64,000 nt of DNA from positions 2,777 to 66,776 of the forward strand of contig JAXDIE010000023.1 in assembly GCA_034664165.1 (NCBI GenBank). The letters run 5' to 3'. Below are positions 12,005-55,633 of the stretch, piece by piece. This DNA comes from Thermoleophilaceae bacterium. Its GTDB lineage: Bacteria; Actinomycetota; Thermoleophilia; Solirubrobacterales; Thermoleophilaceae. Below the pieces are notes generated by a model, which saw only the letters and a list, made by a program, of their open reading frames with translations, was not told where the DNA came from and did not search any database. How positions within the stretch are numbered: the first letter of the stretch is position 1; each line of letters opens with the position of its first letter. A program made the translations under genes and the position numbers.

Positions 12005-12008
12005 AAGA

Positions 12009-12165: not shown

Positions 12166-12185
12166 TCCTGCTCTAGGGTCGGTGG

Positions 12186-14790: not shown

Positions 14791-14804
14791 CCACCCAGGG
14801 TAGA

Positions 14805-17694: not shown

Positions 17695-17732
17695 CCATGC
17701 ATCCTGCTGCCCAACCCGGACGTGCGCATCCC

Positions 17733-17744
17733 CCATCCGGATGG
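17733..17744. promoter_or_regulatory. perfect 12-bp palindrome CCATCCGGATGG upstream of GAF-LuxR #2
   Basis: Read directly, about 50 nt upstream of the ATG at 17793 in the divergent intergenic region. Confidence 0.3.
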
Positions 17745-17792
17745 TTGCTACCCCCCGTTTTGGGCGATACTCTCCCCCGGAGGAGAGAGAAG

Positions 17793-23020: not shown

Positions 23021-24358
23021 TCAGGGCAGTGCCGGGACTTCTTGGAAGTTCTGCTTGGTCGACGGGTTGTCGATGCTGCCCGGCTCCGGGTAGGAGTTGT
23101 GCTCCTGCTTGGTGGTCAGCTTGGACACCAGGCCAACATCAACCAGCGCGTTGTAGGCGTCGATGATCTCCTGCTTGCTCGACAGGAAGTCAGGGCCGGG
23201 CGGGGCGGCAACTGCGTGCACGCGGCCAAGCTGGCCCAGCGCGTCCTTGTAGTCGTTGATCGAGCCGGTGTTGGCGAAGAAGGCGCCGAACTCCTGGTCG
23301 TAATCCTTGAGGTAGGCCACGGCGGGGATCGCCTGGCGGAGAAGCGCGTCAAGTGAGCCGATGGCCGGGTCGAGGTCCTGGGTGAATGGCCGCAGGGCGG
23401 CGAACATCGGGTTGGCCTCGTTGATGAAATGCGGAAGCTCGTCGAAGATCTGGTTGGCGTCGTGCGCCGCTGGCTTGAGATCCCGGATGGCCGGCGAGAG
23501 GTCGGTCGAAGCAACGCGAAGGTCATGGATGACAGGCGTTGCGTTGTCGGAGAGGTTCCCGAGCTTGCCGAGCGTGGTCCTTGCCGTGCGCAAGGTCGGC
23601 GGCAACTCCTGGAAGGTGGAGGCCAGCTGATCGTTCTCGGCCGACGCCGCCTCCGCGGCGTTCTTGGCCTGGACCGCGAGGGTCCTGACCTGCGCGGTGC
23701 GATCCGCGAACGCCTGGAAGGTGCTGGCGGTGTCGTCGATTGCGTGGGCCAGCTGGTCACGCTGGCCGCGGAAGACCTGCATCAGGCGGCCGCCGTCCGC
23801 AACGGTCGGCTCCATCGCGGCGAAGAGCTGGTTGAGGTCCTCGCCGTGGCCGTTGAAGGCCGTGCCGAGGCTCTGGAGGTCCTGGGTCACGTGACGGCGG
23901 GTGGGCGCGTGGAAGGTCGAGAGGATCTCCTCCAGCGCGGTGACCTCCTGGGCGTGGCTGGCCATGAGGGTGCCGTTGTCGGGCACGGCTCCCGCCTTGG
24001 GCGTGCCGGGGTCGAGATCGATGTAGGTCTCGCCGACCAGCGTCTTGATCCGGGGAGCCACGGTGGCGTCCTTGTAGATAGGCGCGACGCTGCCGTCCTC
24101 GAGCTCGAAGGTCACGAGCCCGGCCCCGCTGGGGGTCTGCCCGCGCCGGGTGACGCGGCCGACCTTGACGCCGCCGATGCGGACGTCGGAGTTCTCCACC
24201 AGGTTGAGCGGCTCGGGCAGGACCACGCTGACGTGGTACGGCTCGCTGAGGCGGAAGCGACCGCCCGCCTGCGTGTAGAGGAAGGCGAAGATCGCCAGGC
24301 ACACGGCCGAGAACAGAACGATCACGCCCACCTTCATCTTTGCGTTCTCGGCCCTCAC
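23021..24358 (-). CDS. mceF: MCE-family substrate-binding protein (sixth of six)
   Basis: N-terminal TM (VGVIVLFSAVCLAIFAFL), MCE domain with VRIGGVKVGRV, long helical region. The GTG at 24358 overlaps the mceE stop (GTGA). Alternative ATG at 24337. Confidence 0.85.
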   Translation of the reverse strand: MRAENAKMKVGVIVLFSAVCLAIFAFLYTQAGGRFRLSEPYHVSVVLPEPLNLVENSDVRIGGVKVGRVTRRGQTPSGAGLVTFELEDGSVAPIYKDATVAPRIKTLVGETYIDLDPGTPKAGAVPDNGTLMASHAQEVTALEEILSTFHAPTRRHVTQDLQSLGTAFNGHGEDLNQLFAAMEPTVADGGRLMQVFRGQRDQLAHAIDDTASTFQAFADRTAQVRTLAVQAKNAAEAASAENDQLASTFQELPPTLRTARTTLGKLGNLSDNATPVIHDLRVASTDLSPAIRDLKPAAHDANQIFDELPHFINEANPMFAALRPFTQDLDPAIGSLDALLRQAIPAVAYLKDYDQEFGAFFANTGSINDYKDALGQLGRVHAVAAPPGPDFLSSKQEIIDAYNALVDVGLVSKLTTKQEHNSYPEPGSIDNPSTKQNFQEVPALP

Positions 24359-25620
24359 TTGCCGTCCTCCCCCTGTGCGTAGCACGGCGTCACGTGCTTG
24401 AGGCCCGGGTCCGCGATCGACTCGAAGCCCGTGCTCCCCTGTGTGAGCGCGCCGCGCGGGATGGCGCCGTACGCATCGCTGAACTTGAGCACCGAGAGCG
24501 TGTCCTGGAAGAACTTGCTGAGCGAGGTGTCGAGGCACGGCATGGCCGTCTGCGTGATCCCGTCGAAGCGCGGGGCCTGCGGACGCAGCTGGGTGAAGGC
24601 CGACTCGAGCGAGTCGGTCGTCGGCTTCAGCTCCTGGGAGAGCGGCTGGAGCTGGTTGAAGGCGGGCTGCAGGTCGCGGAGCGCCGGCGTGGCGTCATCC
24701 GAGAACTGCTTGAGGCCGTTCAGCCCGTTGTCAAGCTCGTGAGCGGCCGGCACCAGCTGGCGCAGGGCCGGATCCATCTCGTCCTCCGCCGCGCGGAGGC
24801 TCGTGAAGGAATCCCGCAGGGCGGTCATGGTCGGCGGGAACTGACGGACCGTCTCCGACAGCGGCGAGCTGGCCGAGGAAAGGGATGTCAGGGTCGAGTT
24901 GCCTGCCGTGATCAGCGTGTTCAGCTGGGCGTCGCGCTCCGCAAGCAGGTCGGCCACGTTGCCGAAGTTGGTGATCACGCGCTTGAGCTCGGTCTGACGA
25001 TCCGCCATGACCGTTGTCACGTCCTGCGCCGCGTGGAGGAAGGGCGCGACCTCGGCGAAGGCCGCCTTGAGGTCTTGGCCGTTGCCCGCCAGCCCCGTCG
25101 CAAGCTCGTGCAGCAGCGTATTGAGGTGTGTACGCGTGTCCTCATCGAAGGTGTCGAGAACCCGGGAGATGTCGACCGGCGTCTCGGTCTGCTTCGAGGA
25201 GATGACCTGGGACGAGCCGGACGGGATGGCGCCGGCAGCGGGCGTGCCGCGATCGACCACAGTCACATACATGTCCTGCAGAGGGGTCTGGGGCCGGATG
25301 CGCAGCTGGGCATCCTTGTAGAGCGGGCCGTACCGGGGCACGAGCGAAAGGGTCGCGACGCCCTCGCCGTCGACCGTCCGAAGCGCCTGGACGAAGCCGA
25401 CCTTGACGCCGGCTATGCGAACCGGGTGCTGCCCTGCGAAGACGCCCTTGACGGAGTCGAATGCAACGTTGACGGTGTAGCGCTTCTCGAAGGGCTTCAG
25501 GAACGTCAGGTTGTTGAAGATCAGGACCAGGGTGATGATGGCCGCCATCAGAGCGAACACCAGCCACAGGAAGGGATTGCGCGCGCGCTCGACTTCCAGC
25601 TTCAGACGGGCGGTGTTCAC
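24355..25620 (-). CDS. mceE: MCE-family substrate-binding protein
   Basis: 421 aa. N-terminal TM, MCE domain VRIAGVKVGFV. 4-nt overlaps at both ends. Confidence 0.88.
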   Translation of the reverse strand: MNTARLKLEVERARNPFLWLVFALMAAIITLVLIFNNLTFLKPFEKRYTVNVAFDSVKGVFAGQHPVRIAGVKVGFVQALRTVDGEGVATLSLVPRYGPLYKDAQLRIRPQTPLQDMYVTVVDRGTPAAGAIPSGSSQVISSKQTETPVDISRVLDTFDEDTRTHLNTLLHELATGLAGNGQDLKAAFAEVAPFLHAAQDVTTVMADRQTELKRVITNFGNVADLLAERDAQLNTLITAGNSTLTSLSSASSPLSETVRQFPPTMTALRDSFTSLRAAEDEMDPALRQLVPAAHELDNGLNGLKQFSDDATPALRDLQPAFNQLQPLSQELKPTTDSLESAFTQLRPQAPRFDGITQTAMPCLDTSLSKFFQDTLSVLKFSDAYGAIPRGALTQGSTGFESIADPGLKHVTPCYAQGEDGK

Positions 25621-27011
25621 TTGTCATCAACTCCGATCGAAGCGCCTGCGGAGCTGGTTCCGGCCTGGGCCGTGGATGGGGCACCGAGCGTCTGGTTGAA
25701 CACACTGAAGAGGCGGTCGCACTTGATCTTGTCGTCCGCGGTCGGGTCCACCAGGAAGGTGTTGCAGGGCGAGCCGCCGCCGACGAGGTCCTCGCCGAGG
25801 CCGAGGGTGAAGTTGGCGGAGTGCGCGACTTCGTTGAAGTGCGCGCCCAGCGAGCCGACCGCGGAGAAGAACGGTCCGATGGCCTCGTAGTCCTTGAGGC
25901 CTGTGTCGGCGTCGTACTGCTGGAGGTGGGGCAGGATGCTCTCGTTGGTGCGGTCCACTGTGGGCTGCAGGCGGTTCATGAGCGGCGTGCCATCGTCGGC
26001 CGCAGCCGCCAGCTGGCGCACGGCCGGGTCGAGGTCGTCGAAGGTCTTGTCCGCGCGCTCGAGCATCGGGTCGAGCTCGTTGAAGGTGTTCTGTGCCTCC
26101 CTGGAGGCCTCGTCGAGCCTGCGCGCACCCGGACGGAGGTCGCGGGCCAGCGGATCGAGGTCGTCGAGCGTGCCGCGCAGCCGCGTCATGGTGACCTGGA
26201 CCGAGTCCATGGTCTCGGGGCCATCCTGCACGGCCTGCGAGAGGGCCGCGCCCTGGGATCCGACTGCCTGGAACGTGGTCGCGCCGTTGTCGAGAAGCCC
26301 TGCGAGGTCTGTCTCGTTGCGGCCGAGTGCACGCATGGCCGAGCCGGTCTTCGTCACGAGCCTGCCGAGGTCACCCTGACTCTGGCCCTGAAGGGCGTCG
26401 AGGCCCGGAGCGATCTCCTGGGAGGCGGGGCCGAGCGCGTCGAAGGTCTGATGGGCGGCGCGTCCGGCGAAGGCGGTGCCGGCCTCCTTGATGAAGCCAC
26501 GCATACCCGCGCGCCCGTACTCGTCGAGGGGCTGCAGTGCCTGGTCGACGTCGGTCGCGTAGCGCGTGCGGGTCTCGGGAATGATCTTGCCATCGGCCAG
26601 TGCGGGCGCGCTGGCAGATCCGGGCATGAGGTCCATCTCGAAGAAGAAGCCGAGCAGCGTCCGTCCGTAGACCGTGGCACGCGCGTCGTCCTTCATCTGG
26701 ATCGTCGGGTCGGTGATCCGGAAGCTCACGAGAGCGCCATCACCGTCCGGCTGGCGCTCGACCTTCTCGACGCGCCCGACCTCGACACCGCCGACGCGCA
26801 CCTGCGTGGTGCCCGGGCGCAGGTAGTCCGCGCGGCTGAATGCAGCGGTGTAGACCTTGCCGCCCTTCGGGATGAACGGGATCGATGCAGAGAACATCGC
26901 GTAGAGCACGAGGGCCAGGATCCCGAGCGAGATCGCCCCATTACGGACCCGGTTGGGCCGGTGCTGCCCGGGGACGAGCTCGAAGCGCTTGAAGAAGCCA
27001 CCGTCAGCCAT
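25617..27011 (-). CDS. mceD: MCE-family substrate-binding protein
   Basis: 464 aa. N-terminal TM, MCE domain VRVGGVEVGRV. Confidence 0.88.
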   Translation of the reverse strand: MADGGFFKRFELVPGQHRPNRVRNGAISLGILALVLYAMFSASIPFIPKGGKVYTAAFSRADYLRPGTTQVRVGGVEVGRVEKVERQPDGDGALVSFRITDPTIQMKDDARATVYGRTLLGFFFEMDLMPGSASAPALADGKIIPETRTRYATDVDQALQPLDEYGRAGMRGFIKEAGTAFAGRAAHQTFDALGPASQEIAPGLDALQGQSQGDLGRLVTKTGSAMRALGRNETDLAGLLDNGATTFQAVGSQGAALSQAVQDGPETMDSVQVTMTRLRGTLDDLDPLARDLRPGARRLDEASREAQNTFNELDPMLERADKTFDDLDPAVRQLAAAADDGTPLMNRLQPTVDRTNESILPHLQQYDADTGLKDYEAIGPFFSAVGSLGAHFNEVAHSANFTLGLGEDLVGGGSPCNTFLVDPTADDKIKCDRLFSVFNQTLGAPSTAQAGTSSAGASIGVDDK

Positions 27012-28300
27012 CAGCGGATCGGCTCCTTTCCGACCTGGCAGGGCTTGGGGTAGGCGTTCGAGAAGGTCGGGGTGACGCCCTTCTTGCCGCCGCCGATGGT
27101 CTCCTCGGAGGCGATGACCTCGAAGCGGATCATCTGCATCGAGCCGTCGGTGAAGCCGAGCATGCTCTCCCAGTTGTTGAACATGCGGTCGTAGTCGCAG
27201 CCGCGAGGCGCGAGGACGTTGAGGATCGGCAGCGTGTTCTTGAGGCCGTCCTCGATGTTCGGCAGCACGGGGTTCACCGTGTCCAGGAGGCCCAGCGTCG
27301 GGTTGACGGCGTCGCCGACCAGGTCCAGGGTCCTGTTGAGGTTGCGCAGGCTGGGCTGGGAATCGTCGAGGAGCTTCGAGGTCTCATTGAGCGCGCCGGG
27401 CGCGGCCTGGAGCATGGGCCGGGAGTTGCGTGCAAGCAGGCCGGTCTCGGTCACCAGCGGATCGGTGCGCGCCAGCTCGACACGGGCTGTCTGCAGCGTC
27501 GGCGGGGCCTCCTCGAGGGTGTCCTGGACGCCCTGCTCCTGCTCCTTGAAGGGCTTGAGCGCGTCGGCTTCCGGCGCGAAGCCCTGGCCGATGTCGTCCC
27601 GCACCGGGTCTGCCGCGTTGGCGGCTCCCTGCGAGGAGCTGATGAAGCGCGCGAGGGCGCCATCGAGCGCATTGACCGAGCCGACTACCTGGTCGGTGTC
27701 CTGCAGGAACTCCGGCGCCGCGGCCAGCGTCTTGTTGCCGTCGAAGCCGCGATCGGCAAACCCTTCGCCGAACTCCTTCAGGAAGATCTGGGTCTGGGCG
27801 CGGGTCTTCTTGTCCAGCGACGAGAGCGCGCCGTCGATTGTCACCGTGGCCTTGGTCTGACTGGCAGGGATGGTCGCGCCCTGGGGCAGCCGGGTTCCCT
27901 CCGTGCCCTTGGTGAGCTCGATGTAGCGGACGCCGATCGGGCTTCGCGGGCGGATGCGCAGCGTGGTGTCCGAGAGCAGCGGGCCCTGGTCGGCTGCCAG
28001 CTGAAGCTCGACCACTGCGTTGCCATCGTGCACCGAGGTGTCGGAGACCTGGCCGATGAGCTCCGCGCCCGACCGCACCTGGTAGGTGTCGGTGATGTTG
28101 TCGGCCTCTTCGAACTCCGCGTTTATGTAGTAGTAGGAGCGGCCCGGGATGCTGTTGGCCGCGTTGAAGCCGACGTAGAGCAGGAGCAGCGCGAAGAAGA
28201 TGCCGAAGGCGCCCGTGATGAGCAGGAACGGGCGGCTCTGCGGCTTACCGACCTCGCGGCCGGCGCCGGGAAGGCGCGATCTGAGCGAGGTTATGTTCAT
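27011..28300 (-). CDS. mceC: MCE-family substrate-binding protein
   Basis: 429 aa. N-terminal TM (FLLITGAFGIFFALLLLYV) followed by an MCE domain. Confidence 0.88.
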   Translation of the reverse strand: MNITSLRSRLPGAGREVGKPQSRPFLLITGAFGIFFALLLLYVGFNAANSIPGRSYYYINAEFEEADNITDTYQVRSGAELIGQVSDTSVHDGNAVVELQLAADQGPLLSDTTLRIRPRSPIGVRYIELTKGTEGTRLPQGATIPASQTKATVTIDGALSSLDKKTRAQTQIFLKEFGEGFADRGFDGNKTLAAAPEFLQDTDQVVGSVNALDGALARFISSSQGAANAADPVRDDIGQGFAPEADALKPFKEQEQGVQDTLEEAPPTLQTARVELARTDPLVTETGLLARNSRPMLQAAPGALNETSKLLDDSQPSLRNLNRTLDLVGDAVNPTLGLLDTVNPVLPNIEDGLKNTLPILNVLAPRGCDYDRMFNNWESMLGFTDGSMQMIRFEVIASEETIGGGKKGVTPTFSNAYPKPCQVGKEPIR

Positions 28301-29940
28301 GGCGCGAACAGGTAGTCGAGGAGCCGGAGGGCATCGTTGTGCTGGTTCGAGGAGGAGCCTGAGCTCTGGCCTCCGCCGAGGAGCTTGTCGACCGCACCCT
28401 TGAGCCGTGCCTGCGGGGCGTCGAGCAGCTCCTTGAGCTTGTCGGTGCCGAGCTTGGCCAAGCCCTTGACGTCATCCACGGTCTTGCCGAGGCGGTCCTT
28501 GACCTCGCCGAGCAGCTTGTCCTTCAGGTCGTTGACCTTCTTGACGGTGTCGTCGACCAGGCCCTTGGTCTTGTCGACGACGTCCTTGACCTTGTCGCCG
28601 ACGGCCTTGACGGCGTCGCCGTCGGCCGTGTCGAAGCTCTTGTCGGGGCCGTCATAGGCGTTGACGCTCTTCGAGGCGGTTGAGGGCTTCTTGTTGGCCG
28701 GCTTGGCGGAGGCCGTCTTCGCCCCGTGATCGAGGCTGACGTCGCCCGGCGAGAGGTAGCGCTCCAGCGCGTGGCTGAAGGTGTTCTTGCTGACGTACGC
28801 GCGGATGCCGAAGAGATGGCTCAGGCCGTCGGAGGTACCGATGGCTCCGGCCCAGTTGTTCATCACGCCCATGAGCTTGGCGAATGAGCCCGAGCCCTGG
28901 CTGCCGTTGCCGTCCATCTGGTCGATGATCGGATCGGCGATGTCGACGAAGTGGCGCAGACGGTTCAGCGTCGGGCGGAGGCGCTCGACGACCGGGGTGC
29001 CCTCGCGGCCCAGCCGCACCAGATCGGGTGAAATCGCGCTGGCGGTGCGCAGGGTGTTCTGCGCGGCGTCCGCGAAGTCGGGCAGCTGCTCCAGCGTGTC
29101 ATGAAGCGGATCCGCCGTCCTGCGGAGGTCGGCCGCGGCCGGCTTGAGCTGGTTGGAGGTTGTGGTGAGCTTGCCGAGCGTGGTCTGGAGCTGGGTGAGG
29201 GCGGTTGGCGCCTCGCGGAAGGTGTTGCCGAGCTCCTCGCGGCGGCTTGCTGTGACCCGGAGGGCGTCGGCCGCGCTGTCGACAAGGTTGCCGAGGTCTC
29301 CCCGGTTACCCGAGATCGATGCCACGACGCGGTCACCCTGATCGATGAGCATCTTCATCTTGTCCGTCTCCGAGCGGGCCTCGTTGGTCAGGTCCGCGAT
29401 CTGGTCGATGGCCGGGGGAAGCTCCTCGAGCAGGCCGTTGAAATCCGAGCCGCGCCCGGCGAGCATGATGCCCGCCTCGTTGACGAGGATCCTCAGGCGC
29501 GCGCGGACGTCGGGGGCCAGGATGTTCAAGGCATCGTCGATCTCGACCGGGGTCGAGGTGCGCGCCAGCGGGATAGACGTGCCCGAGGGCAGCGGCTTGC
29601 TGAGGTCGCCTACCTCGAGGTCCATGTACTTCTCGCCGAGGAGGTTCACCGGGCGTGCGGCGGCGGTGGCGCCCTCGCCGATGTTGCCGCTGCCCGGGTC
29701 AAGCAGCATGGTGACCAGAGCGGTGTCGTCCTTGCTCAGCTCGAGGTGGGTGATGATGCCCGCGTCAACGCCGCCGATCTTGACGTTCGAGTTCGGCACC
29801 AGGCCGGACGCGTCGGTGAGCTCGGCCTTGACCACGTAGGTGCCGTTCGGCGTCTCGAACACCGCGTGCTTGAAGATGAGCACGACGGGGATCAGCAGCA
29901 CGATGGCGATGATCGGCGCGAGTATGCCCTTCGTGTTCAC
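28297..29940 (-). CDS. mceB: MCE-family substrate-binding protein with K/D-rich 11-mer repeat tail
   Basis: 547 aa. N-terminal TM, MCE domain VKIGGVDAGII. The C-terminal region has about seven 11-residue repeats. Confidence 0.88.
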   Translation of the reverse strand: MNTKGILAPIIAIVLLIPVVLIFKHAVFETPNGTYVVKAELTDASGLVPNSNVKIGGVDAGIITHLELSKDDTALVTMLLDPGSGNIGEGATAAARPVNLLGEKYMDLEVGDLSKPLPSGTSIPLARTSTPVEIDDALNILAPDVRARLRILVNEAGIMLAGRGSDFNGLLEELPPAIDQIADLTNEARSETDKMKMLIDQGDRVVASISGNRGDLGNLVDSAADALRVTASRREELGNTFREAPTALTQLQTTLGKLTTTSNQLKPAAADLRRTADPLHDTLEQLPDFADAAQNTLRTASAISPDLVRLGREGTPVVERLRPTLNRLRHFVDIADPIIDQMDGNGSQGSGSFAKLMGVMNNWAGAIGTSDGLSHLFGIRAYVSKNTFSHALERYLSPGDVSLDHGAKTASAKPANKKPSTASKSVNAYDGPDKSFDTADGDAVKAVGDKVKDVVDKTKGLVDDTVKKVNDLKDKLLGEVKDRLGKTVDDVKGLAKLGTDKLKELLDAPQARLKGAVDKLLGGGQSSGSSSNQHNDALRLLDYLFAP

Positions 29941-31295
29941 TTGGCCGCGTCCCTTGCGTCCTCGGGGTCCTTGGACGGGTCAAGCGAGTCCGGCGTGTAG
30001 CCGCACTTCTCGATGAACTGCGGGTTGCCGGCGTCGACACCGGGTACGCGCGGGTAGGCGTAGTGGTCACCCGACAGGTCAGTGAAGGCCTTGGTCGTGA
30101 AGCCCGGCGGGTAGAGGTTGTTCATGATCGCGCCGGAGCTGCCTCGGACGCGGGCGTAGTGGGAGACGCTGTCGTAGTTCTGGGAGAAGCTGGCCCAGTT
30201 GGACAGGAAGCCGGCGAACTCGGGGGCGTAGGGGCGGAAGCAGCCGATCATCGGTGCCAGGTTCTTGAAGAGCGGGTCGATGTCCCTCGAGAACGGGGCG
30301 CCGCGACGCAGCATGGCGGTGATGTCCGGAGCCGAGTTGGTGATGGTCCGGACTGTGGACAGCGCGTTGGGCGCGGTGTGGCGGAGCTGCGAGAGCGCCG
30401 GGCGCATCTGGGCGGCCAGCGGGCGCAGCTGCTGCGCGCCGGGCTTGAGGTCGTTCATGAGGCCGTTCAGCTCATTGATGCTGCTGTCGAAGCGGCTGAG
30501 TGTGGTGCGGCTCTGGCGGAGGGTCTCCGGGAACTCCGCGATGTCGGTCCGGAGGTCGGCCGAGTTGCTGCCGAAGGCGTCAAACGTCTGGGCCGCGCCG
30601 GCAACGACGTTGCGGATCGCGTCGCTGTTGTTGGCCAGGATGCTGGCTGTGTTGGAGGTGTCGCTGACCAGGCGCTGCAGCGAGTACTCGTCCTGGGCCA
30701 GCTCGTGGAAGACGCCACCGGCTGCCTCGAAGGCCTCCGGGGATTCCTCGAGGCCGGATGCGAGCCCCTTCTCGTGGCCCACCACTGTGCCGCCGGTGTT
30801 GGCGAGCATCGTCTGGAAGCTCTCGCGCGTATCGGCGTTGAAGGTGTTGAAGAGGTCGTCGAACTCGACGGCCGAGACGGTGTTGTCGGTCGGGATGATC
30901 CCGCCGTCGGCGATCGCCGGTGCGCTGTCCGGGCCCGGATCCAGCTCGATGAAGCGGGTGCCGTTGCCGACCGTGGTTCCCCAGCGGGCCACCGCGCGGG
31001 TGCCCTGGTGGAGCGGCCAGACGCGCTCGTCGCTGATGCCGATCTCCACGACGGAGACGCCGTCGACGTAGCTGATCTTGCCGACCTTGCCGGCGTCGAT
31101 CCCGTCAACGCGTACGTCGAGGCCAGGGAAGAGCTGGACGGCCGAGGTGAAGCCGGCCTTGATCGTGTGCGCCTGGGTGCGCGTGCCGATGACCCACCAG
31201 ACGAAGAGCACGGCCGCGATCGCGATGATCACAAGCCATGGCCTGGATATCAGCCAGTTCCCCGCCCCCTTGCTGCGCCCCCCTACTGCCCCCAC
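29937..31295 (-). CDS. mceA: MCE-family substrate-binding protein (first of six)
   Basis: 452 aa. N-terminal TM (WLVIIAIAAVLFVWWVI), MCE domain VRVDGIDAGKVGKI. Confidence 0.88.
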   Translation of the reverse strand: MGAVGGRSKGAGNWLISRPWLVIIAIAAVLFVWWVIGTRTQAHTIKAGFTSAVQLFPGLDVRVDGIDAGKVGKISYVDGVSVVEIGISDERVWPLHQGTRAVARWGTTVGNGTRFIELDPGPDSAPAIADGGIIPTDNTVSAVEFDDLFNTFNADTRESFQTMLANTGGTVVGHEKGLASGLEESPEAFEAAGGVFHELAQDEYSLQRLVSDTSNTASILANNSDAIRNVVAGAAQTFDAFGSNSADLRTDIAEFPETLRQSRTTLSRFDSSINELNGLMNDLKPGAQQLRPLAAQMRPALSQLRHTAPNALSTVRTITNSAPDITAMLRRGAPFSRDIDPLFKNLAPMIGCFRPYAPEFAGFLSNWASFSQNYDSVSHYARVRGSSGAIMNNLYPPGFTTKAFTDLSGDHYAYPRVPGVDAGNPQFIEKCGYTPDSLDPSKDPEDARDAAK

Positions 31296-31304
31296 TGCCC
31301 GGCC

Positions 31305-32177
31305 TTAGCCTCCGACCGCCGTCCTGGGATTCGCGCCCCAGAACACCATGGTCAACGCTGCGCCGATGACACAGACGATGATGAGGTTGAGGATCATCGA
31401 CCTGGCTGTGGCCGTGCCCACACCGACGGGACCGCCCGACGCGTTGTAGCCGTAGTACATGGCCACGAGCACTATCAATGTGCCAAGGGTCATGCCCTTG
31501 ATCAGCGAGTAGAGGATGTCGACCGGCTGGGTGAAGCCCCAGTGGATGGTCTCCCAACCCGCCTGCGAGACCTCGCCGATCGTCACGATCAGAATGAAGA
31601 AGTTGGCCAGGTAGTGGAAGCCCATGCCGACCAGGAAGATCAGCGGGAACGCGACCCAGCAGGCCACGAGGCGGGTTGCCACGACGTAGCGCATCGGGCT
31701 CAGGCCCATCGTGTCCATGGCGTCGAGCTCGTCGTTGATCCGCATCGAGCCGATCTCGGCGACCAGTCCGCAGCCGACCTTGGCGGCGAGGATGCAGCCC
31801 CACATGAACGGGATGCACTCGCGCGCGGCGCAGTACGCAGTGAACACGCCCGAGTAGACGGTGGCGCCGTACCCGCGGAGCACGTAGTTGGCCTCGAGGC
31901 CGCACTCCATGCCCATGACGAACTCCATGAACCAGATCACCGCGGCCGAGCCGACGATGAGGATGCCGATCTGGCGGAGGATCTCCGCCGAGTAGCGCCA
32001 GACACCGCGGACCTCGACCAGCGTTCGGCCGACGAACGCGCCCATGTCGCCCGCCGTCTCGAAGGTCGAGCGGATGGGTGCCGTGAGACCCGCCGTGAGG
32101 CGGCTTCCGGATGTGGGAGGAGTCGCGCCTGCGCCCGCGAGTGCCGGCCGAGCGCGTCCTTGCGTTACCTCTGCCAT
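31305..32177 (-). CDS. yrbEB: YrbE/MlaE-family permease
   Basis: 290 aa from MAEVTQG (ATG 32177, 1 nt after the yrbEA stop). Polytopic. The track ORF extends to 32270. Confidence 0.88.
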   Translation of the reverse strand: MAEVTQGRARPALAGAGATPPTSGSRLTAGLTAPIRSTFETAGDMGAFVGRTLVEVRGVWRYSAEILRQIGILIVGSAAVIWFMEFVMGMECGLEANYVLRGYGATVYSGVFTAYCAARECIPFMWGCILAAKVGCGLVAEIGSMRINDELDAMDTMGLSPMRYVVATRLVACWVAFPLIFLVGMGFHYLANFFILIVTIGEVSQAGWETIHWGFTQPVDILYSLIKGMTLGTLIVLVAMYYGYNASGGPVGVGTATARSMILNLIIVCVIGAALTMVFWGANPRTAVGG

Positions 32178-32178
32178 G

Positions 32179-33051
32179 TCAGTGGAGGTTGCCGGTCTCG
32201 GGGAACGCCGCGAGCAGCATGGTCGTGAACATGTAGTTGAAGACCCAGATGCCGGCGAACGAGATGACAACCGCCTGGTTGACCGCTCGACCCACCCCCT
32301 CTGCGCCGCCCTTGACGTTCATCCCCTTGTAGCAACAGACGATGGCGATGATGAACCCGAAGAGGCTGGTCTTGATGACACTGCCCAGCAGGTCCGGAAG
32401 GGTGAAGTTGGAGCTGAACGTCGCGTAGTAGCCGGCCGAGGTCTCGTTCCAGGTGACGACCGCCGCGAACCATCCGCCCAGCACGCCGAAGCTGATGGCC
32501 AGGAGGTTCATGAGAGCGGTGATCAGGCCGAGCGCCAGGAAGCGCGGCGTGACGATGCTGCGCACCGGGTCCAGGCCGAGAACCGAGAGCGCGTCGATCT
32601 CCTCGCGCACCTTGCGGGCTCCGAGGTCCGCGCAGATGGCCGTGCCGCCGACTCCTGCCATGACCATGCCGTTGATCCACGGGGCGAACTCGCGCACGGA
32701 CGCCATCACGAAGAACGCGCCCTCGCGGTCGATGGTCCCGAACACGGAGAGGAGGTTCGAAGCCTGGAGCCCCGGCGCCCCGTAGCCGAACCCGACCGTG
32801 GTGAACATGATCGGGACGATGCATCGACGGATGAGGAGGAAGGTCTCGTCGACGAACTCGCCGCGCCATGTGAAAGGCGGGGTGATGGCGGCCGTGATGG
32901 CCTTGCCGGTCAGGATCATCATGCCGGCGGTCTGCTCGAGAATCCCGGCGGGGCCCTCCAGCACGCGCTTGGCTCCACCTCGGATTCGCTGGGGTGTGCG
33001 CTGCGGCGCGGGTAGAACGGTCCGACGCGGGGTCTGCGTTGTTGCCGACAC
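32179..33051 (-). CDS. yrbEA: YrbE/MlaE-family permease
   Basis: 290 aa with GTG start after GAGGAGGAG. Polytopic and paralogous to the next gene. Confidence 0.88.
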   Translation of the reverse strand: MSATTQTPRRTVLPAPQRTPQRIRGGAKRVLEGPAGILEQTAGMMILTGKAITAAITPPFTWRGEFVDETFLLIRRCIVPIMFTTVGFGYGAPGLQASNLLSVFGTIDREGAFFVMASVREFAPWINGMVMAGVGGTAICADLGARKVREEIDALSVLGLDPVRSIVTPRFLALGLITALMNLLAISFGVLGGWFAAVVTWNETSAGYYATFSSNFTLPDLLGSVIKTSLFGFIIAIVCCYKGMNVKGGAEGVGRAVNQAVVISFAGIWVFNYMFTTMLLAAFPETGNLH

Positions 33052-33236: not shown

Positions 33237-33431
33237 ATGGAAGCCCTCCTGCCGGTGATCGCGTGCCCCCTCGACGGCCTCGCCGGCGCCGGCTTCACGC
33301 TCGTCGACATGGTCTTCATCATCGCAGTGATCCTGGCGGCGGTCTACTGCGTCGTGAGGAAGCACTACACGGTGCTGGTCGTGCTGGTGGTGGTCGCCCT
33401 GGTGGGCGGCGCGCTGCTCCTCGGGCGCTAG
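33237..33431 (+). CDS. small membrane protein (64 aa)
   Basis: ATG at 33237 (MEALLPVIA...). Two hydrophobic helices. The track ORF starts at 33144. Confidence 0.4.
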   Translation: MEALLPVIACPLDGLAGAGFTLVDMVFIIAVILAAVYCVVRKHYTVLVVLVVVALVGGALLLGR

Positions 33432-33439: not shown

Positions 33440-33765
33440 GTTCCGTCTACGGCAGCAATGAGGGGGCCGGTGTTGGGGCTGGGCATCTCCGCCGCACCCT
33501 CAGGACAAAAGAAAACGCGTTTCGCTGGGAGTAAAACCCGCGCCTCCGGGGAGCCGCGGGCGAGGCGAGGTTCCCCGCACAACCCACAGGACTAATTGCA
33601 TGGAGTTTTCCTGGGAGAACAATTCGTGGCTCCCCTTCGTCGCCTTCCTGGGCGCGGTTCCGTAACAACGGCAGCAATGAGGGCACAAAGCGAAGCCGGT
33701 GGGAGCCACCGTCCTGCCCAACGGAGACAGGACCCGCGTGCAGCAGCGGTACGAGCAGTAATTTC
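33440..33765. repeat. intergenic repeat element, copy A (core 33578-33765)
   Basis: The core aligns with 55447-55632 in the same orientation, with only scattered substitutions and indels. It contains AACGGCAGCAATGAGG-type motifs at 33447-33463 and 33667-33683. It lies between convergent gene ends. Confidence 0.75.
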
Positions 33766-33768: not shown

Positions 33769-34056
33769 CTACGGCCGGCGCAGCGCTTCCGGACCGTACA
33801 TCTCAAGTTCAGCTTCAGTGATCTCCCGGCGGCCCTGGGCGCGGCGACGCTCGTTCTCCCGGCCCATCATCTGGAACAGATCCTCGGCATCGAGCTCCGC
33901 CCGCCTGGCCGCGTGCTCCTCCGGGCGGTAGTCCAGGAGGTCGCCGGCTCCGCTGCCGGGCGAGTGCAGCCAGGCCAGGATGATGAAGACCAGGACGCTT
34001 CCGAAAAAGAGTATGGCGAGCCAGGCCCCGACGGTTATGTCAGCTACGACCATCAA
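33769..34056 (-). CDS. small membrane protein (95 aa) with charged C-terminal tail
   Basis: One N-terminal TM pair (ITVGAWLAILFFGSVLVFIILAWL) followed by an acidic/basic tail. No family recognised. Confidence 0.45.
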   Translation of the reverse strand: MMVVADITVGAWLAILFFGSVLVFIILAWLHSPGSGAGDLLDYRPEEHAARRAELDAEDLFQMMGRENERRRAQGRREITEAELEMYGPEALRRP

Positions 34057-36404: not shown

Positions 36405-37310
36405 TCACTCCATCCCCAGCGGGCCCTGGACGTCGCGGTTCAGGAACTGGCGGACGAACGGGTTGCTGGAGTTGAACATGGACTTGGCATCCCCGGCCTG
36501 AACGATCTGCCCCTTCCAGAGGACGGCGATGTACTCGCCGATCTGACGTGCGGACGCGATGTCGTGGGTGATCACGATGTAGGTGCCGCCGTTCTCCTCG
36601 TGCATCTGCTTGATCAGGTCGCAGAGGAGCGCGGTGCGCACCGGGTCGAGGCCGGAGTCCGGCTCGTCGAACATGACGATCTCGGGACCGAGCACCAACG
36701 CGCGGGCGAAGCCGGCGCGCTTGCGCATTCCGCCCGAGAGCTCCGACGGTGAGCGGTCGCCGGCCTCCTGCAGGCCGACGTCGGCCAGCCGGGAGTTGAC
36801 GATCTCCGCGATCTGCTCCTCGCGGTAGTCGGTGTGCTGGCGAAGCGGGAAGGCCACGTTGTCGTAGAGGGACATCGAGCCGAAGAGCGCGCCGTCCTGG
36901 AAGAGGATGCCGAACTTGCGGCGGACGTCCAGGAGACGGGACAGGGTCATCTTCGGGACCGACTCACCGTGCACGACGATGTCGCCGGAGTCGGGGAAGA
37001 GCAGGCCGATCAGGTGCTTGATGAGCACGCTCTTGCCCGTGCCCGACGGGCCGAGGATGATCGAGATCATGCCCTCGGGGATGCCGACGGTCAGGCCATT
37101 GAGCACCTCGTTGCGGCCGAACTTCTTGTAGACGTCCTCGACCCGGATCGACCAGAACTCCCCGGGGACCTTCTCCTCCAGCTCGAGCGCGCCCTCGTGG
37201 ACGACCTCGCCGGATTCGCTCTTGAACCCCACCGCCTGGTCGAGGAGCGCCGCGGCCTCGGGGCTGGGCCCCGGGACGGGAACGTCAGTGGGGAAGGGAT
37301 CGTCTGCCAT
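36405..37310 (-). CDS. mceG: Mce/Mla-type ABC transporter ATPase (Mkl/MceG)
   Basis: 301 aa. Walker A GPSGTGKS, Q-loop FQDGALF, signature LSGGMRKRAGFARAL, Walker B IVMFDEPDSGLDP, H-loop ITHD. Confidence 0.88.
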   Translation of the reverse strand: MADDPFPTDVPVPGPSPEAAALLDQAVGFKSESGEVVHEGALELEEKVPGEFWSIRVEDVYKKFGRNEVLNGLTVGIPEGMISIILGPSGTGKSVLIKHLIGLLFPDSGDIVVHGESVPKMTLSRLLDVRRKFGILFQDGALFGSMSLYDNVAFPLRQHTDYREEQIAEIVNSRLADVGLQEAGDRSPSELSGGMRKRAGFARALVLGPEIVMFDEPDSGLDPVRTALLCDLIKQMHEENGGTYIVITHDIASARQIGEYIAVLWKGQIVQAGDAKSMFNSSNPFVRQFLNRDVQGPLGME

Positions 37311-43823: not shown

Positions 43824-45359
43824 TTAGACGGAACGTCCGCTGTCCTGCCAGTACTCGTCACGCAGGGCGCGCTTGAGCACCTTACCCACCGGGCTGCGAG
43901 GCAGCTCACGGACGATGACCGTCTTGGGGGTCTTGACCGGGCTGAGCCGCTCGCGGCAGTAGGCGATGATCTCGTCGGCGTCGACCTCCATGCCGCTCTT
44001 GGGCTCGACGACCGCGGTGACCGACTCGCCCCACTTCTCGTCCGGCAGGCCGATAACGGCACAGTCGTTGACCGACGGATGGCTCCAGATGACCTGCTCG
44101 ATCTCGCCTGGGTAGACGTTGAAGCCACCCGTGATCACCATGTCGCGCTTGCGGTCGACGATGTAGATGTAGCCGTCCTCGTCCTTCTGGCCGATGTCGT
44201 TGGTGCCGTGCCAGCCGTTGCGGTCGGCGGCGGCCGTCTCCTCGGGGTTCTTGTAGTAGCCCTTCATCACCATCGAGCCGCGCACAACGATCTCGCCGCG
44301 CTCGCCCGGGGGCATGAAGTTGCCGTCGTCATCCATGATCTCGACGCGCGCCACGAGCGATGGCTTGCCGCAGCTGGCCAGGCGGCCTTCCAGCCCGGGG
44401 GTCTCGAGGCACTCCATGTGCTCCTTGGGCCCGAAGAAGGTGCAGATCATGGGCGCCTCGGCCTGGCCGAAGGTCTGCGTCATGACGGGGCCGAAGACTT
44501 CGATGGCCTCCTTGAGCTTCTCGGTGGACATGGGGGCGGCGGCGTAGATGAAGTGCTGGAGCGAGCTGTAGTCGCGGTCGCGCACCGTCGGGTCGTCGAG
44601 CAGCGAGTAGATCGCGGTGGGCGGCAGGAACATCCGCGTGACCTTGTGCTTCTCGATGGAGTCGAGGATCTCGACCGGCTTGACATTCTTATGCACGATC
44701 GTGGTGCCGCCGGCGGCGAAGACGGGGAAGGAGATCGGCCCGGCCGCGTGGGTCATGGGCGCGGCCATGAGCTGGACGGGGGGAGCCGGCTCGGGCATGT
44801 GGGCGGCGAAGGCCAGGTTCATGAACTCAGCGACCCGGTGGGTGAGCATCACGGCCTTGGACTTGCCCGTGGTGCCGCCGCTGCCGAACATGATGGCCAC
44901 GGAGTCGGGGCTGTGGGCGGGCATGCCAACCTCGGTGCCCTCGGGCGCCATCCAGGTGTCCAGCTCGGCGATCGGGACCAGCTCGCGGACCACGTCGACG
45001 GCGTCGTCCAGCTGGCGCGCGAACTCCTCGAGCTCGGGGTGGAAGAACAGCACCTCGGTGTCGGAGAGCTCCAGCGTGTGCGCCAGGTCCTCGAGCGTGC
45101 CGCGGGTATTCATCGGGACCCACGACGCGTTGAGCCTCAGCGCACCGAGTACGCAGCAAAAAGCGATCGGGTCGTTCGGGGAGAAGACCGCGACCTTGGT
45201 CTCCTCTTCGACGCCCAGATCCTTGAGCTTGGCCGCAATCCGATGCGACATCGCCGACATCTCGGCGTAGGTGTACTCGCGGTCTTCGCCGTACATGACC
45301 ATGCAGGCCCGGTCGGGGTCGAGAAGAACGCCACGATCGAAGGTCTCTATTAGTTGCAT
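43824..45359 (-). CDS. acyl-CoA synthetase (AMP-forming, FadD-like)
   Basis: 511 aa. AMP-binding motif FGSGGTTGKSKAV. Later GWHGTNDIG and ITGGFNVYPGEIE. Confidence 0.9.
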   Translation of the reverse strand: MQLIETFDRGVLLDPDRACMVMYGEDREYTYAEMSAMSHRIAAKLKDLGVEEETKVAVFSPNDPIAFCCVLGALRLNASWVPMNTRGTLEDLAHTLELSDTEVLFFHPELEEFARQLDDAVDVVRELVPIAELDTWMAPEGTEVGMPAHSPDSVAIMFGSGGTTGKSKAVMLTHRVAEFMNLAFAAHMPEPAPPVQLMAAPMTHAAGPISFPVFAAGGTTIVHKNVKPVEILDSIEKHKVTRMFLPPTAIYSLLDDPTVRDRDYSSLQHFIYAAAPMSTEKLKEAIEVFGPVMTQTFGQAEAPMICTFFGPKEHMECLETPGLEGRLASCGKPSLVARVEIMDDDGNFMPPGERGEIVVRGSMVMKGYYKNPEETAAADRNGWHGTNDIGQKDEDGYIYIVDRKRDMVITGGFNVYPGEIEQVIWSHPSVNDCAVIGLPDEKWGESVTAVVEPKSGMEVDADEIIAYCRERLSPVKTPKTVIVRELPRSPVGKVLKRALRDEYWQDSGRSV

Positions 45360-45452
45360 GGGGCCGACCCTAGGTCGCCTGGGAAGCCGGGGTCTTGTAG
45401 TGCGCGTCCAAAGCGGTCGCGCGCGTGTTGGGTCAAATGGACAACCAGCTGG

Positions 45453-46589
45453 TCAGCGGTCGGTGCCCCGGGCGCGGAGGTAGAGGGACGCGGCCTCTAC
45501 GCGGTTTGCCGCTCCCAGCTTGCGCAGGATCCGCTTGACGTGGGACTTGGTGGTGCCCTCGGTGATGACAAGCTTGTCGGCAATCTGGTTGTTGGTGGCT
45601 CCCTGGGCCACCAGCGCCAGGACCTCGCGCTCGCGCCGGGTGAGCTGCGCCTCGATCGCCGTCTCCACATCCCCGAAGAGCGCCGCTGCCGACCGCGCCG
45701 CGCCCGCTTCGACCGGCCCGGCGACCAGTTCGACCTGGGCCGCCAGCTGAGCAGACACCACCGAGTCCGCCTGTGCGATGAGACTCTTGAGCTCCTGGCC
45801 CTGGGAGCGCAGCCTGTCCAGCAGCTGCATGCGCTCTACAGCGAACCCGAGCCCCTCGGCGAAGGCCCAGATGGCATCGCGGTCGAAGCCGTCGACGGCA
45901 TCGATCACGCCGGGATATCGCAGGCCCTTCTCCCCGTGCAGGAACCCGATCACCCGGCCCTCGGGCATGATCGGCGCCGCGACGTAGGCGTGCGAGCCGT
46001 AAGCCCTGACGAGCGGCTTGTACGTGGAGGGGTGGTTCTGTGCGTCGTGCACGACCATCGGCCGGCGGCGGCGGATCATCTCCGACTCCAGGATCTGCTC
46101 GCGGAGCGGCGCGGGGTTGGCCCGGCTCAGCTCCAGCAGCTCCGCCGCGCGCTCAGGGTCACTGGCCACGAAGAAGCCCTCGCAGATCATCATCGCGTCC
46201 TCCACCCGATAGATGGCAACGCGATCGAAATCGCAGGCCCATGCAACCTCGGCAGGGGCCCTCCTGATCATCGCCTCACTGGCGCCGATGCCACGGAGGC
46301 GCTCGAGGGCCTCGTGAATCCGCCCGAACACCAGCAGCCTACGGCCCATGCGCTCCTCCACGAGCTCCGAGCGCACCTGGCTCAGCTCGACCAGGGCATC
46401 CCAACGCTCGCGGTCCTCGCCGGTAAGGTCCTCCTGGCGCGCGGCCAGGGCCACATCCAGGGCGTCGAGCAGGGCCTCGGCACCGCCCTTCTCGGGCACG
46501 GTGGCGCCACAGCGCTCCAGTACCTCGGCGGCGCGGGCCACCAGCGAAGCAGAGGCCGGAGCCTCCGCCGCGGAAGATCTCTGGCTCAC
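45453..46589 (-). CDS. GAF-domain LuxR-family transcriptional regulator (paralog 3)
   Basis: GAF-like block ESEMIRRRRPMVVHD...APIMPEGRVIGFLHGE. LuxR HTH LTRREREVLALVAQGATNNQIADKLVITEGTTKSHVKRILRKL. The in-frame GTG at 46589 overlaps the upstream hydrolase stop (GTGA). The track ORF extends to 47945. Confidence 0.78.
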   Translation of the reverse strand: MSQRSSAAEAPASASLVARAAEVLERCGATVPEKGGAEALLDALDVALAARQEDLTGEDRERWDALVELSQVRSELVEERMGRRLLVFGRIHEALERLRGIGASEAMIRRAPAEVAWACDFDRVAIYRVEDAMMICEGFFVASDPERAAELLELSRANPAPLREQILESEMIRRRRPMVVHDAQNHPSTYKPLVRAYGSHAYVAAPIMPEGRVIGFLHGEKGLRYPGVIDAVDGFDRDAIWAFAEGLGFAVERMQLLDRLRSQGQELKSLIAQADSVVSAQLAAQVELVAGPVEAGAARSAAALFGDVETAIEAQLTRREREVLALVAQGATNNQIADKLVITEGTTKSHVKRILRKLGAANRVEAASLYLRARGTDR

Positions 46590-47647
46590 GTGCGCCAGCC
46601 TATTTGCCGAGCAGGTTCGGCCGGAGCGTCCAGCGGGGGCGCCTGGTCGGCGGGCACGTGCGCCGCCAGGTCGGCATGCGGGCCGTCCTTCTGCCACGAG
46701 TGCATGCCCAGGCGCTTCATGGACAGGTACTTGGCGCGGCCGTGCGCATTGCCAATCACCCAGACGCCGTGGACGGAGACCGGCAGGAGCGAGTTCCAGA
46801 AGTACGGCGGGGTGGGGTCGCGCGGCTGCGGGTCGTCCTCCATCGTCACGTCCTGGCAGATGTAGCCCTCGCCGTCCTCGTAGCTCATGCGCTCGAGCAC
46901 GCGGCCGTCGGCATCGCAGATCGCCGTCTCCCCCACGCAGATGGATGGCCATGGGACCCCGGGCATGAGCATCGTGGCCATCGTGAAGTCGCCGACGTGC
47001 GAAGGGTGCACCGCGGGCACGCCGAGCATCCGGGCCATGCGCGGCGGGGTCTCGCGCGCGTACTGGAGCAACGCCTGGTGGTCGCGATCCCAGAACCACT
47101 TCTTCGTGACGCGCCATTTCGGAAAGGAGGGAAAGTGCATTCCGCCCGCCAGGAGCTGGACCTTGCCCAACATCCGGTGCACCGTGCGGGTACGGCCCCA
47201 CTCGAAGCCGTTGGCGCAGCCGATGACCCCGAGCGATGTGTTCATCACCCCGTCGTCGGTGCCGGGCGAGTAGTAGTTGTTCTCCCAGAAGCTCGGCTGA
47301 TCCTTGTCGTGCAGGTGGATGGCGCCGTCGGGCTCGCAGAGCGCGTAGGTGCCGCGCGTGTCCTGGCCGCGCACGGCTATGAAGCCGCCGCCCACCAGGC
47401 AGCCGTACTCGCGCGCCATGTTTCGCAGCAGGGCCAGCGGCTCGCCGATCAGCGGCCGGGCAACCCTGCGCATGCGCCTGTCGTAGGCGTTGGGTGAGGT
47501 CATGGCCTCGGGCAGCCAGATGGCGTCGGGCTCGTGCTCCTTTGCCGCCTGGCGGATCAGGTCCTCGAGGTGGCGGAGGTTCTTGTCGACCTCCCCTATC
47601 TGCACGCGAGGCTGGATGGCGACCATCCGACGGACCGCGTCGGGCAT
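46586..47647 (-). CDS. carbon-nitrogen hydrolase (nitrilase superfamily), long form
   Basis: 353 aa. E in WLPEAMT, K in HLHDKDQPSFWE, Cys in LGVIGCANGFEW. The start overlaps the upstream ACAD stop by 1 nt. Confidence 0.75.
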   Translation of the reverse strand: MPDAVRRMVAIQPRVQIGEVDKNLRHLEDLIRQAAKEHEPDAIWLPEAMTSPNAYDRRMRRVARPLIGEPLALLRNMAREYGCLVGGGFIAVRGQDTRGTYALCEPDGAIHLHDKDQPSFWENNYYSPGTDDGVMNTSLGVIGCANGFEWGRTRTVHRMLGKVQLLAGGMHFPSFPKWRVTKKWFWDRDHQALLQYARETPPRMARMLGVPAVHPSHVGDFTMATMLMPGVPWPSICVGETAICDADGRVLERMSYEDGEGYICQDVTMEDDPQPRDPTPPYFWNSLLPVSVHGVWVIGNAHGRAKYLSMKRLGMHSWQKDGPHADLAAHVPADQAPPLDAPAEPARQIGWRT

Positions 47648-53834: not shown

Positions 53835-54596
53835 ATGAGCGATGACCTGACTGGGCGCCGGGCGTTGGTAACGGGTGCCGCACGCGGCCTGGGACTGGCT
53901 GTCGCGGAGCTGTTCCTGGAGCGCGGAGCCACCGTGATGCTGTCGGACCGCGATGGGGCCGAGGCCGAGGCCGCGGCCGACCGTCTGGGTGACAAGGCGC
54001 TCCCGAACACGTGTGATGTGACCTCCAGCGAGCAGGTCCAGGCGATGATCGCCGCGGCCGTCTCCGAGATGGGCGGGCTCGACATCCTGGTGAACAACGC
54101 CGGAATCGAGATCTCGAAGCCCATGAACGAGCACAGCGATGAGGAGTTCCTCAACCTGCTCAAGATCAACGTGCACGGGGTGTTCATGTGCACCAAGTAC
54201 GCGGTGCCCGCCCTGGCCGAGAGCAAGGGCAACATCGTGAACATGGCCTCGGTGGCCGGGCTGGGTGCCGCGCCGCTGCTCTCGGCCTACTGCTCCTCCA
54301 AGGCCGCGGTCATCGGATTCACCGAGGTCTGCGCGCTCGAGCTGCGGGACGCGGGCATCCGCGTGAACGCGGTGTGCCCGTCGTTCATCGGCACGGAGAT
54401 GGTTGACCGGATGATCCCGATCTACGAGGAGATACTCCCCTTGCCCTTCGATGAAGTCGTGAAGATCAAGCAGGGCCGACTCGGAACCTCCGAAGAGGTG
54501 GCCGAGACCGTGGCCTTCCTGGCCTCGGATGACGCCTCCTGGACCACAGGCGCCCATTTCACCCTCGACAACGCCCTCACGGCGAGCCTTCTCTGA
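53835..54596 (+). CDS. short-chain dehydrogenase/reductase
   Basis: 253 aa. TGAARGLG, NNAG, YCSSKAA. Confidence 0.88.
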   Translation: MSDDLTGRRALVTGAARGLGLAVAELFLERGATVMLSDRDGAEAEAAADRLGDKALPNTCDVTSSEQVQAMIAAAVSEMGGLDILVNNAGIEISKPMNEHSDEEFLNLLKINVHGVFMCTKYAVPALAESKGNIVNMASVAGLGAAPLLSAYCSSKAAVIGFTEVCALELRDAGIRVNAVCPSFIGTEMVDRMIPIYEEILPLPFDEVVKIKQGRLGTSEEVAETVAFLASDDASWTTGAHFTLDNALTASLL

Positions 54597-55632: not shown

Positions 55633-55633
55633 C

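Follow-up and report, generated by a model that had tools for sequence, protein, structure and literature searches.

The repetitive extragenic palindromes (REP) of Enterobacteria and Pseudomonas, whose mosaic clusters are called BIMEs, are units of 20–40 nt that number in the hundreds and are associated with RAYT transposases. ERIC elements and MITEs are characterized by terminal inverted repeats, with the MITEs additionally displaying target-site duplications. In the actinobacteria, the Tuberculosis Rho-independent terminator (TRIT; Gardner et al. 2011) is a lineage-restricted palindromic motif found at the ends of genes; M. tuberculosis has 147 copies of it, and it has been reported only in Mycobacterium, where it is placed around position −8 relative to the stop codon (PMC3152330). 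[quoted passage not shown]

Here, we analyze a 64-kb stretch of DNA (hereafter the window) in which two intergenic stretches, termed copies A and B, constitute a real, previously uncatalogued non-coding sequence family. Our preferred reading, which we hold at roughly even confidence, is that these stretches are decayed short forms of a lineage-specific mosaic palindromic intergenic repeat that acts as a 3′-end hairpin or termination zone, i.e., a new sequence family of a known kind. The sequence-only reading of this DNA had proposed a candidate new family of sRNAs or structured elements. The family itself stands, being non-coding, absent from catalogues and represented by homologues in relatives at both loci; the designation as an sRNA or a structured element found no support. 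The repeat is probably a 3′-end hairpin or termination zone, and its profile is a better fit to a mosaic palindromic intergenic repeat than to a trans-acting sRNA gene.

Like the REP/BIME elements, the repeat is extragenic, lies at gene 3′ ends or between convergent genes, combines imperfect palindromic units with variable linkers, and is lineage-specific, with its presence varying between strains; the proposed roles, namely mRNA 3′-end protection and termination, are also the same. Palindromic units were found both as motif-armed hairpins (at 55372–55422, at 10490–10601 and in the spacers of two relatives, L057 and L058) and in long forms of the repeat, with folding z-scores of −5 to −6.5. 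It differs from REP/BIME in that the modules are longer, the window features two full copies and three motif-bearing spacers in 64 kb, and no RAYT gene is found in the window. Going by published description only, the likeness to TRIT lies in an actinobacterial, genus-restricted, sequence-conserved hairpin that is tightly placed by stop codons and mostly bidirectional (PMC3152330); set against that description, the motif described here starts 9–17 nt after the stop codon, within a 270–470-nt mosaic. With ERIC/IRU, BOX and MITE (Correia) elements it shares short and long forms generated by indels at fixed points, a modular build, strong predicted hairpins and a setting in transcribed intergenic regions. 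However, copies A and B have neither terminal inverted repeats nor duplications, and inverted ends are seen only in the element at 10490–10601. Finally, the site between convergent gene ends and the lack of an ORF recall the mycobacterial intergenic sRNAs (PMC3553938), but the repeat shows no promoter signal and, in the window copies, no structural signal.

Two copies of a repeat between convergent genes

An alignment of 185 columns, with 25 mismatches and 4 gap positions (E = 1e-54), puts the two copies at 84.3% identity; they share one orientation and lie 21.9 kb apart, in agreement with the sequence-only reading. A separate repeat search of the window recovered the central 94 nt of the pair unaided (family D5). 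The placement of both copies between convergent 3′ gene ends, likewise part of the original description, was confirmed by GC3-filtered ORFs, Pfam and gene calls on the near-identical contigs L003 and L062. The cores and the genes that bound their spacers are as follows:

33237–33431, plus strand: gene for a small membrane protein, whose end bounds spacer A on the left (gene call on L062; translation)
33578–33765, plus strand: repeat core, short form, copy A (alignment to copy B; MFE z of about 0 on both strands)
33769–34053, minus strand: gene for a 94-aa membrane protein, ending at the right edge of spacer A (gene calls)
54596–55366, plus strand: short-chain dehydrogenase (SDR) gene, whose end bounds spacer B on the left (Pfam adh_short, E = 2e-54; gene call)
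55447–55632, plus strand: repeat core, short form, copy B (alignment to copy A; z of about 0; identical on the independent contig L003)
55634–56242, minus strand: TetR/EthR-like regulator gene, ending at the right edge of spacer B (Pfam TetR_N and EthR_C; gene call)

Nine of the approximately 11 convergent gene pairs in the window overlap or have spacers of 11 nt or less. The sole long convergent spacers are those of 337 nt (A) and 267 nt (B), and both contain the element. The homology between them is probably wider than first noted, running across the whole spacer from stop codon to stop codon: beyond the core, spacer A features an extra motif (33448–33463) and a palindrome remnant (33537–33560), and spacer B a hairpin (55372–55422).

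The window comes from an uncultured bacterium of high GC content (68%), and its genes, which include a propane-monooxygenase-like cluster, an mce operon and an MMPL transporter, look actinobacterial; the nearest public versions of its proteins are 91% identical, with the next dropping to about 55%. Immediately upstream of locus A lies a complete mce-type lipid-uptake operon on the minus strand (23021–33051), comprising two MlaE/YrbE permease genes and six MlaD/Mce genes, and farther along from it are a Mkl-like ABC ATPase gene (36405–37310) and two ferritin-like genes. The 28 window proteins scanned included no transposase, RAYT or integrase. A tRNA-derived attachment site and a tandem array were also rejected, as no tRNAs were found and the spacers hold no tandem repeat. 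We considered and rejected the possibility that the copies are the borders of a 22-kb island, given that no integrase or transposase lies between them and, further, that a relative without the element keeps the same genes beside the 94-aa gene (two ferritin-like genes, the ABC ATPase and others).

At locus B (55367–60418), the TetR gene and the adjacent soluble di-iron (propane/phenol-type) monooxygenase cluster constitute a presence/absence cassette among close relatives, with copy B sitting at its left edge. The TetR gene and the cluster are present in the window, L059 and L060. L058 has the TetR gene alone with no monooxygenase genes, and L061 has neither: the entire cassette is absent and the SDR gene is joined to a fatty-acid desaturase gene across a 28-nt spacer. 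L059, L060 and L061 are three contig variants of the same region from one assembly (ENA ERZ25039498). The heavy fragmentation of the gene calls on all three points to long-read data rich in indels, and their small indels are therefore unreliable for arguments on frame or base pairing.

Modular anatomy of the spacers

Five homologous spacers could be aligned, namely A, B and those of L059, L060 and L065, with L059 and L060 coming from one error-prone assembly. They align as common modules split by large indels. Right after the stop codon of the plus-strand gene is a motif or a hairpin, followed by a palindrome termed H1 (CGGCTCCGCGGAGCCG in the long forms). Next is Block II, a long hairpin with the 3′ arm ACGGCAGCAATGAGGG, and then a set of variable hairpins found only in the long forms and missing from the window copies. 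The final module, Block IV–V (CTCTCCCAACGGAGACAGGACCCGCG.GCAGCAGC...ACGAGCAGTAA), ends 3–9 nt ahead of the stop of the minus-strand gene, and Block V remains joined to the 3′ end of that gene in all five spacers. The short forms measure 267–337 nt and the long forms 320–470 nt, with blocks in common. The modules recognized in the window are:

33448–33463, plus strand: extra copy of a 16-nt motif, TACGGCAGCAATGAGG, 17 nt after the stop of the plus-strand gene (motif search)
33537–33560, no strand assigned: H1 palindrome remnant, CCCGCGCCTCCGGGGAGCCGCGGG, with CGGCTCCGCGGAGCCG as its homologue in the long forms (alignment)
33578–33629 (partner 55447–55497), plus strand: segment common to the window copies only, containing the 5′ arm and loop of the hairpin proposed earlier (not present in L059, L060 or L065 when the five spacers are aligned)
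33619–33706, plus strand: Block II of copy A, a degenerate long hairpin with the 3′ arm ACGGCAGCAATGAGGG (covariance model, 78.6 bits; RNAalifold, 23 pairs, of which A and B break several)
55487–55574, plus strand: Block II of copy B (covariance model, 79 bits)
33717–33761, plus strand: Block IV–V of copy A, CCCAACGGAGACAGGACCCGC-GTGCAGCAGCGGTACGAGCAGTAA, ending 7 nt before the stop of the minus-strand gene (91% identical to L065)
55579–55628, plus strand: Block IV–V of copy B, ending 5 nt short of the TetR stop (a 51-nt match to L065 at 92% identity)

Copies A and B are without terminal inverted repeats, their end motifs being in direct orientation, and no target-site duplication was seen at their junctions.

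A recurrent motif and its hairpins

Three intergenic regions contain the 16-nt motif AACGGCAGCAATGAGG, which frequently serves as one arm of a long hairpin; such motif-armed hairpins lie at 55372–55422 and at 10490–10601, and L057 and L058 have them in their orthologous spacers. With up to one mismatch allowed, the window contains five copies of the 11-mer ACGGCAGCAAT versus 0.87 expected, a count reached in none of 100 shuffles. All of its copies are intergenic, and in each of three spacers one starts 9–17 nt past a stop codon. The two hairpins in the window are:

55372–55422, plus strand: hairpin whose stem is about 22 bp long and which begins 6 nt past the SDR stop, with a degenerate motif copy, AACAGCGGCAATGGGG, as its 3′ arm (−36.1 kcal/mol on the plus strand versus −25.8 on the minus strand; orthologous hairpins in L057 and L058)
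10490–10601, no strand assigned: 112-nt near-perfect nested palindrome between co-directional genes, with the motif as its 16-nt terminal inverted repeats (MFE −63 kcal/mol, z = −3.87, none of 200 shuffles as good)

The post-stop hairpin owes its better fold on the mRNA-sense strand to G–U pairs. Block II of L065 behaves likewise, with −53.3 kcal/mol in the mRNA-sense versus −40.4 kcal/mol in the opposite direction. This asymmetry between the strands favors an RNA-level role in the 3′ tails of the plus-strand genes, but it is not seen in L060 or L059.

The 112-nt palindrome is flanked by genes for a DUF4383 membrane protein and an acyl-CoA dehydrogenase, and its inverted ends carry the AACGGCAGCAAT(R)AGG motif that is found in both repeat copies. 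Another long intergenic region, 11869–12185, contains an intrinsic terminator with a U-tract at 11970–12004 (AAAACCCCCGG-TGAGAG-CCGGGGGTTTTCTCTTTT). Directly after it comes a 160-nt palindrome, whose arms, 12007–12053 and 12121–12167, are 79% complementary and whose sequence is unrelated to the repeat family. Unlike this canonical terminator, the hairpins of the family are without U-tracts.

Folding and the proposed compensatory hairpin

In the orientation of the window's plus strand, the long form of L065 folds with z = −6.45 (MFE −246 kcal/mol), and on the opposite strand with z = −3.74 (−220 kcal/mol). The corresponding z-scores are −5.06 and −5.30 for the long form of L060, and a weaker −1.7 and −2.0 for that of L059, which comes from a noisier assembly. 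The strong structure of the long forms on both strands indicates DNA-level palindromes. Relative to shuffles, neither core in the window displays excess stability: the plus-strand and opposite-strand z-scores are −0.15 and −0.11 for copy A, and +0.21 and +0.13 for copy B. With values around zero, an unusual thermodynamic stability of the window copies is rejected, and a hairpin function is doubtful for these copies as they are not significantly structured. The whole of spacer A gave +0.40 and +0.28. The whole of spacer B gave −1.84 and −1.33, a modest signal attributable to the post-stop hairpin at 55372–55422.

The sequence-only reading had also described a hairpin within the core, in which GGGAG (33613–33617) pairs with CTCCC (33630–33634) in copy A and GGGGA (55482–55486) with TCCCC (55498–55502) in copy B, and took the exchanged pairs to be compensatory. 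The bases are as it described them; the compensatory interpretation did not hold. Three of the five pairs are invariant G–C pairs, and the remainder is a register shift arising from a 1-nt deletion along with a CT>TC change. In copy A, CTCCC is also part of a stronger, perfect 9-bp helix between GTGGCTCCC (33626–33634) and GGGAGCCAC (33701–33709). This helix is used in the MFE structure of copy A and is destroyed by the CT>TC change in copy B. Because the 5′ arm and the loop fall in the 52-nt segment absent from the homologues of all three relatives, the proposed pairing cannot be corroborated. The hairpin change between the two copies is not evidence for conserved structure. The consensus hairpin of Block II shows no covariation: RNAalifold gave 23 pairs with a covariation term of +2.72, i.e., penalizing, for five sequences that afford little statistical power. 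A double change was found in one of the 23 pairs, and copies A and B break four to five of them.

Coding and promoter signals

The short ORFs are indeed not frame-conserved between copies A and B, as had been remarked at the outset. Across A, B and the relatives L059, L060 and L065, no frame is conserved on either strand, and on this ground we rejected a coding origin, including one by read-through of the minus-strand genes. Neither locus showed a sigma-70-like promoter, and in the five spacers no TANNNT box was found to be conserved on either strand.

Distribution in databases and relatives

In Rfam 15, the check proposed for this element, there was no match at gathering scores for the window or for L057–L061; the best hits in the permissive mode (E = 4.8 and E = 3.6) were to irrelevant families. 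The repeat likewise had no match in the plasmid and phage collections with blastn in its distant mode, which led us to reject an IS or MITE carried on plasmids or phages. Exact-pattern scans returned two matches in species-representative genomes, both by chance inside unrelated coding regions, 52 in metagenome contigs, all found to be chance by BLAST and inspection, and none in two scans of viral contigs. The homologues described here were obtained solely by fetching the orthologous spacers of a few close relatives. Taking these spacers and the database scans together, the homologues are confined to a handful of close uncultured relatives, where they occupy the same two loci.

The long form of the element is present at locus B in L059 and L060. 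L058 has only the post-stop hairpin and a Block V-like end, and the 128-nt spacer of L057 combines the post-stop hairpin with other, unrelated hairpins; both are without the repeat core, and their TetR gene is 85% identical at the nucleotide level to that of the window. At locus A, L065 (with a neighboring protein that is 84% identical) has a 470-nt long form. The element is absent from two relatives with 73–74% identity in the 94-aa protein, in which the convergent genes either share 4 nt or leave a gap of about 30 nt. Run on the window and the relatives, a covariance model of Block II recovered no significant copy beyond its five training members, with the simple post-stop hairpins scoring 14–16 bits (E of 0.1–0.3).

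Evolution of the copies

In Block II, copies A and B match at 54 of 61 positions. The matches between positional orthologues are fewer, with 44 of 63 for A and L065 and 48 of 63 for B and L060, and L065 and L060 match each other at 51 of 63. As A and B are closer to each other and have the 52-nt segment in common, they have a more recent common ancestor with one another than with their positional orthologues. Going by these similarities, this suggests that the copies were produced within the genome by gene conversion or a copy-paste process.

A different picture is presented by Block IV–V. Here, the window is 91–92% identical to L065, versus 74–78% for the flanking genes and 54–62% for their third codon positions. 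L060 has closer flanking genes and yet a more diverged Block V than L065; hence, the history of the element disagrees with that of its flanks. Identity above the level of the third positions points to sequence-specific constraint or recent exchange, a feature that a generic hairpin role leaves unexplained. Judging from this comparison, Block IV–V may be either strongly constrained or recently exchanged.

Competing explanations

Under our preferred reading of a mosaic palindromic repeat, the element would enter transcripts solely as the 3′ tail of the convergent genes on its two sides. The hairpins would act in cis, both as a termination or insulation zone and as barriers shielding the mRNA 3′ ends, in the manner of REP/BIME or TRIT. 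The copies could have spread or been homogenized within the genome by non-allelic gene conversion or some copy-paste process, with modules gained and lost through insertion and deletion. The window copies would then have lost most of their pairing and gained the 52-nt insert, after which one was copied onto the other. Both the termination or 3′-protection role and the copying mechanism are inferred. Several findings sit uneasily with this reading. The two full copies and three motif-bearing spacers in 64 kb are joined by no further significant copy. The window copies are unstructured, the hairpins of the family have no U-tracts, and there is no transposase, RAYT or integrase in the window. Finally, the identity of Block IV–V (91–92%) stands against 54–62% at third codon positions.

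This last contrast also speaks for the foremost, if unlikely, alternative, that of paralogous trans-acting sRNA genes or a 3′UTR-derived RNA, in which Block II and Block IV–V are functional and the variable hairpins dispensable. Such RNAs have a precedent between convergent mycobacterial genes (PMC3553938), and the element fills the only two long convergent spacers of the window, is devoid of a conserved ORF and, in L065, folds better in the window's plus orientation (−246 versus −220 kcal/mol). However, there is neither a sigma-70-like promoter site nor a conserved −10 box, and no terminator at a consistent 3′ end. The window copies fold with z around zero, the covariation term is positive and the strand asymmetry is inconsistent in L060 and L059. 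Moreover, near relatives are without the element, and its similarity pattern conflicts with that of the flanking genes, L060 being closer in the genes and L065 in Block IV–V. The same patchy presence, with abutting genes at the empty sites, would suit a selfish or neutral relic, namely a non-autonomous MITE-like insertion decaying with no host function, as would the size variants produced by internal insertions and deletions, the lost pairing in the window copies and the inverted ends of the related 112-nt element. We hold this to be rather unlikely, since copies A and B display no terminal inverted repeats or target-site duplication, the plasmid, phage, genome, metagenome and viral scans gave no match, and Block IV–V is conserved above the neutral expectation. 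We accord the same small likelihood as to such a relic to a new kind of functional element at convergent gene ends in an unsampled actinobacterial lineage, which might be a structured 3′-end RNA with Block IV–V (CCCAACGGAGACAGGACCCGC...GCAGCAGC...ACGAGCAGTAA) bound by some factor, or a mobile palindrome with a dedicated enzyme that inserts it exactly between convergent stops, homogenized between the loci.

The motif ACG(G)CAG(C/T)AA(T) is present in three direct copies per spacer, starting at 33449, 33668 and 33751 in A and at 55405, 55536 and 55618 in B. If these copies are putative binding or recombination sites, the spacers could be DNA-level protein-binding regions, serving a lineage-specific protein, for example, a recombinase that shuffles gene cassettes nearby. 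In keeping with this, the motif occurs more often than expected and solely between genes, makes up the inverted ends of the element at 10490–10601, and accompanies a polymorphic flank at locus B (cassette in the window, L059 and L060; TetR alone in L058; absent in L061), and five spacers have Block V still joined to the minus-strand gene at its 3′ end. Nevertheless, we deem it quite improbable: the window has no recombinase or transposase gene, the L061 junction retains no remnant of the motif, target-site duplications are not seen, and the strand asymmetry that G–U pairs give the post-stop hairpin speaks for a role at the RNA level. By far the least probable is a small-protein gene or a type I toxin–antitoxin-like locus, the candidate being the 21-codon ORF at 33600–33665 (MEFSWENNSWLPFVAFLGAVP*) with its counterpart in copy B. 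Over its 3′ two-thirds, A and B differ by two synonymous third-position changes and a stop-to-stop TAA>TGA change, and L065 has a stop codon at the same position. Against this, the N-terminal parts lie in different frames in A and B owing to the 1-nt indel, the start region is missing from all relatives, and L059 and L060 have TCA in place of the stop. Over the five sequences the variable sites number 3, 2 and 4 at codon positions 1, 2 and 3, showing no third-position bias, and neither a Shine-Dalgarno sequence nor a promoter is found.

If the mosaic-repeat reading is right, the family extends the list of palindromic intergenic repeats that are lineage-specific and lie at gene 3′ ends to an uncultured high-GC actinobacterium that has barely been sampled. 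The repeat would mark the probable end of convergent transcription in genomes where canonical terminators are rare, and would present a case of concerted evolution of non-coding paralogues 22 kb apart. It also carries a warning, in that apparent "covariation" between two copies can be a slip in a decaying hairpin. The repeat opens no long-standing question; the conserved 45-nt Block IV–V is the one feature that could hide something more specific.

Other repeated sequences in the window

The window contains further repeats of other kinds. An inverted repeat of 214 nt with 75% complementarity (47243–47456 and 51086–51299) lies inside two carbon-nitrogen hydrolase paralogues in opposite orientation (46586–47647 on the minus strand and about 50889–51932 on the plus strand). 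Three mutually similar stretches (13905–14122, 18425–18642 and 45798–45988; 73–83%, some of them inverted) are probably the marks of paralogous regulator genes. Of these, 18425–18642 falls inside a GAF/LuxR-type gene (17697–18971), and 13984–14805 and 45359–46586 are candidate genes.
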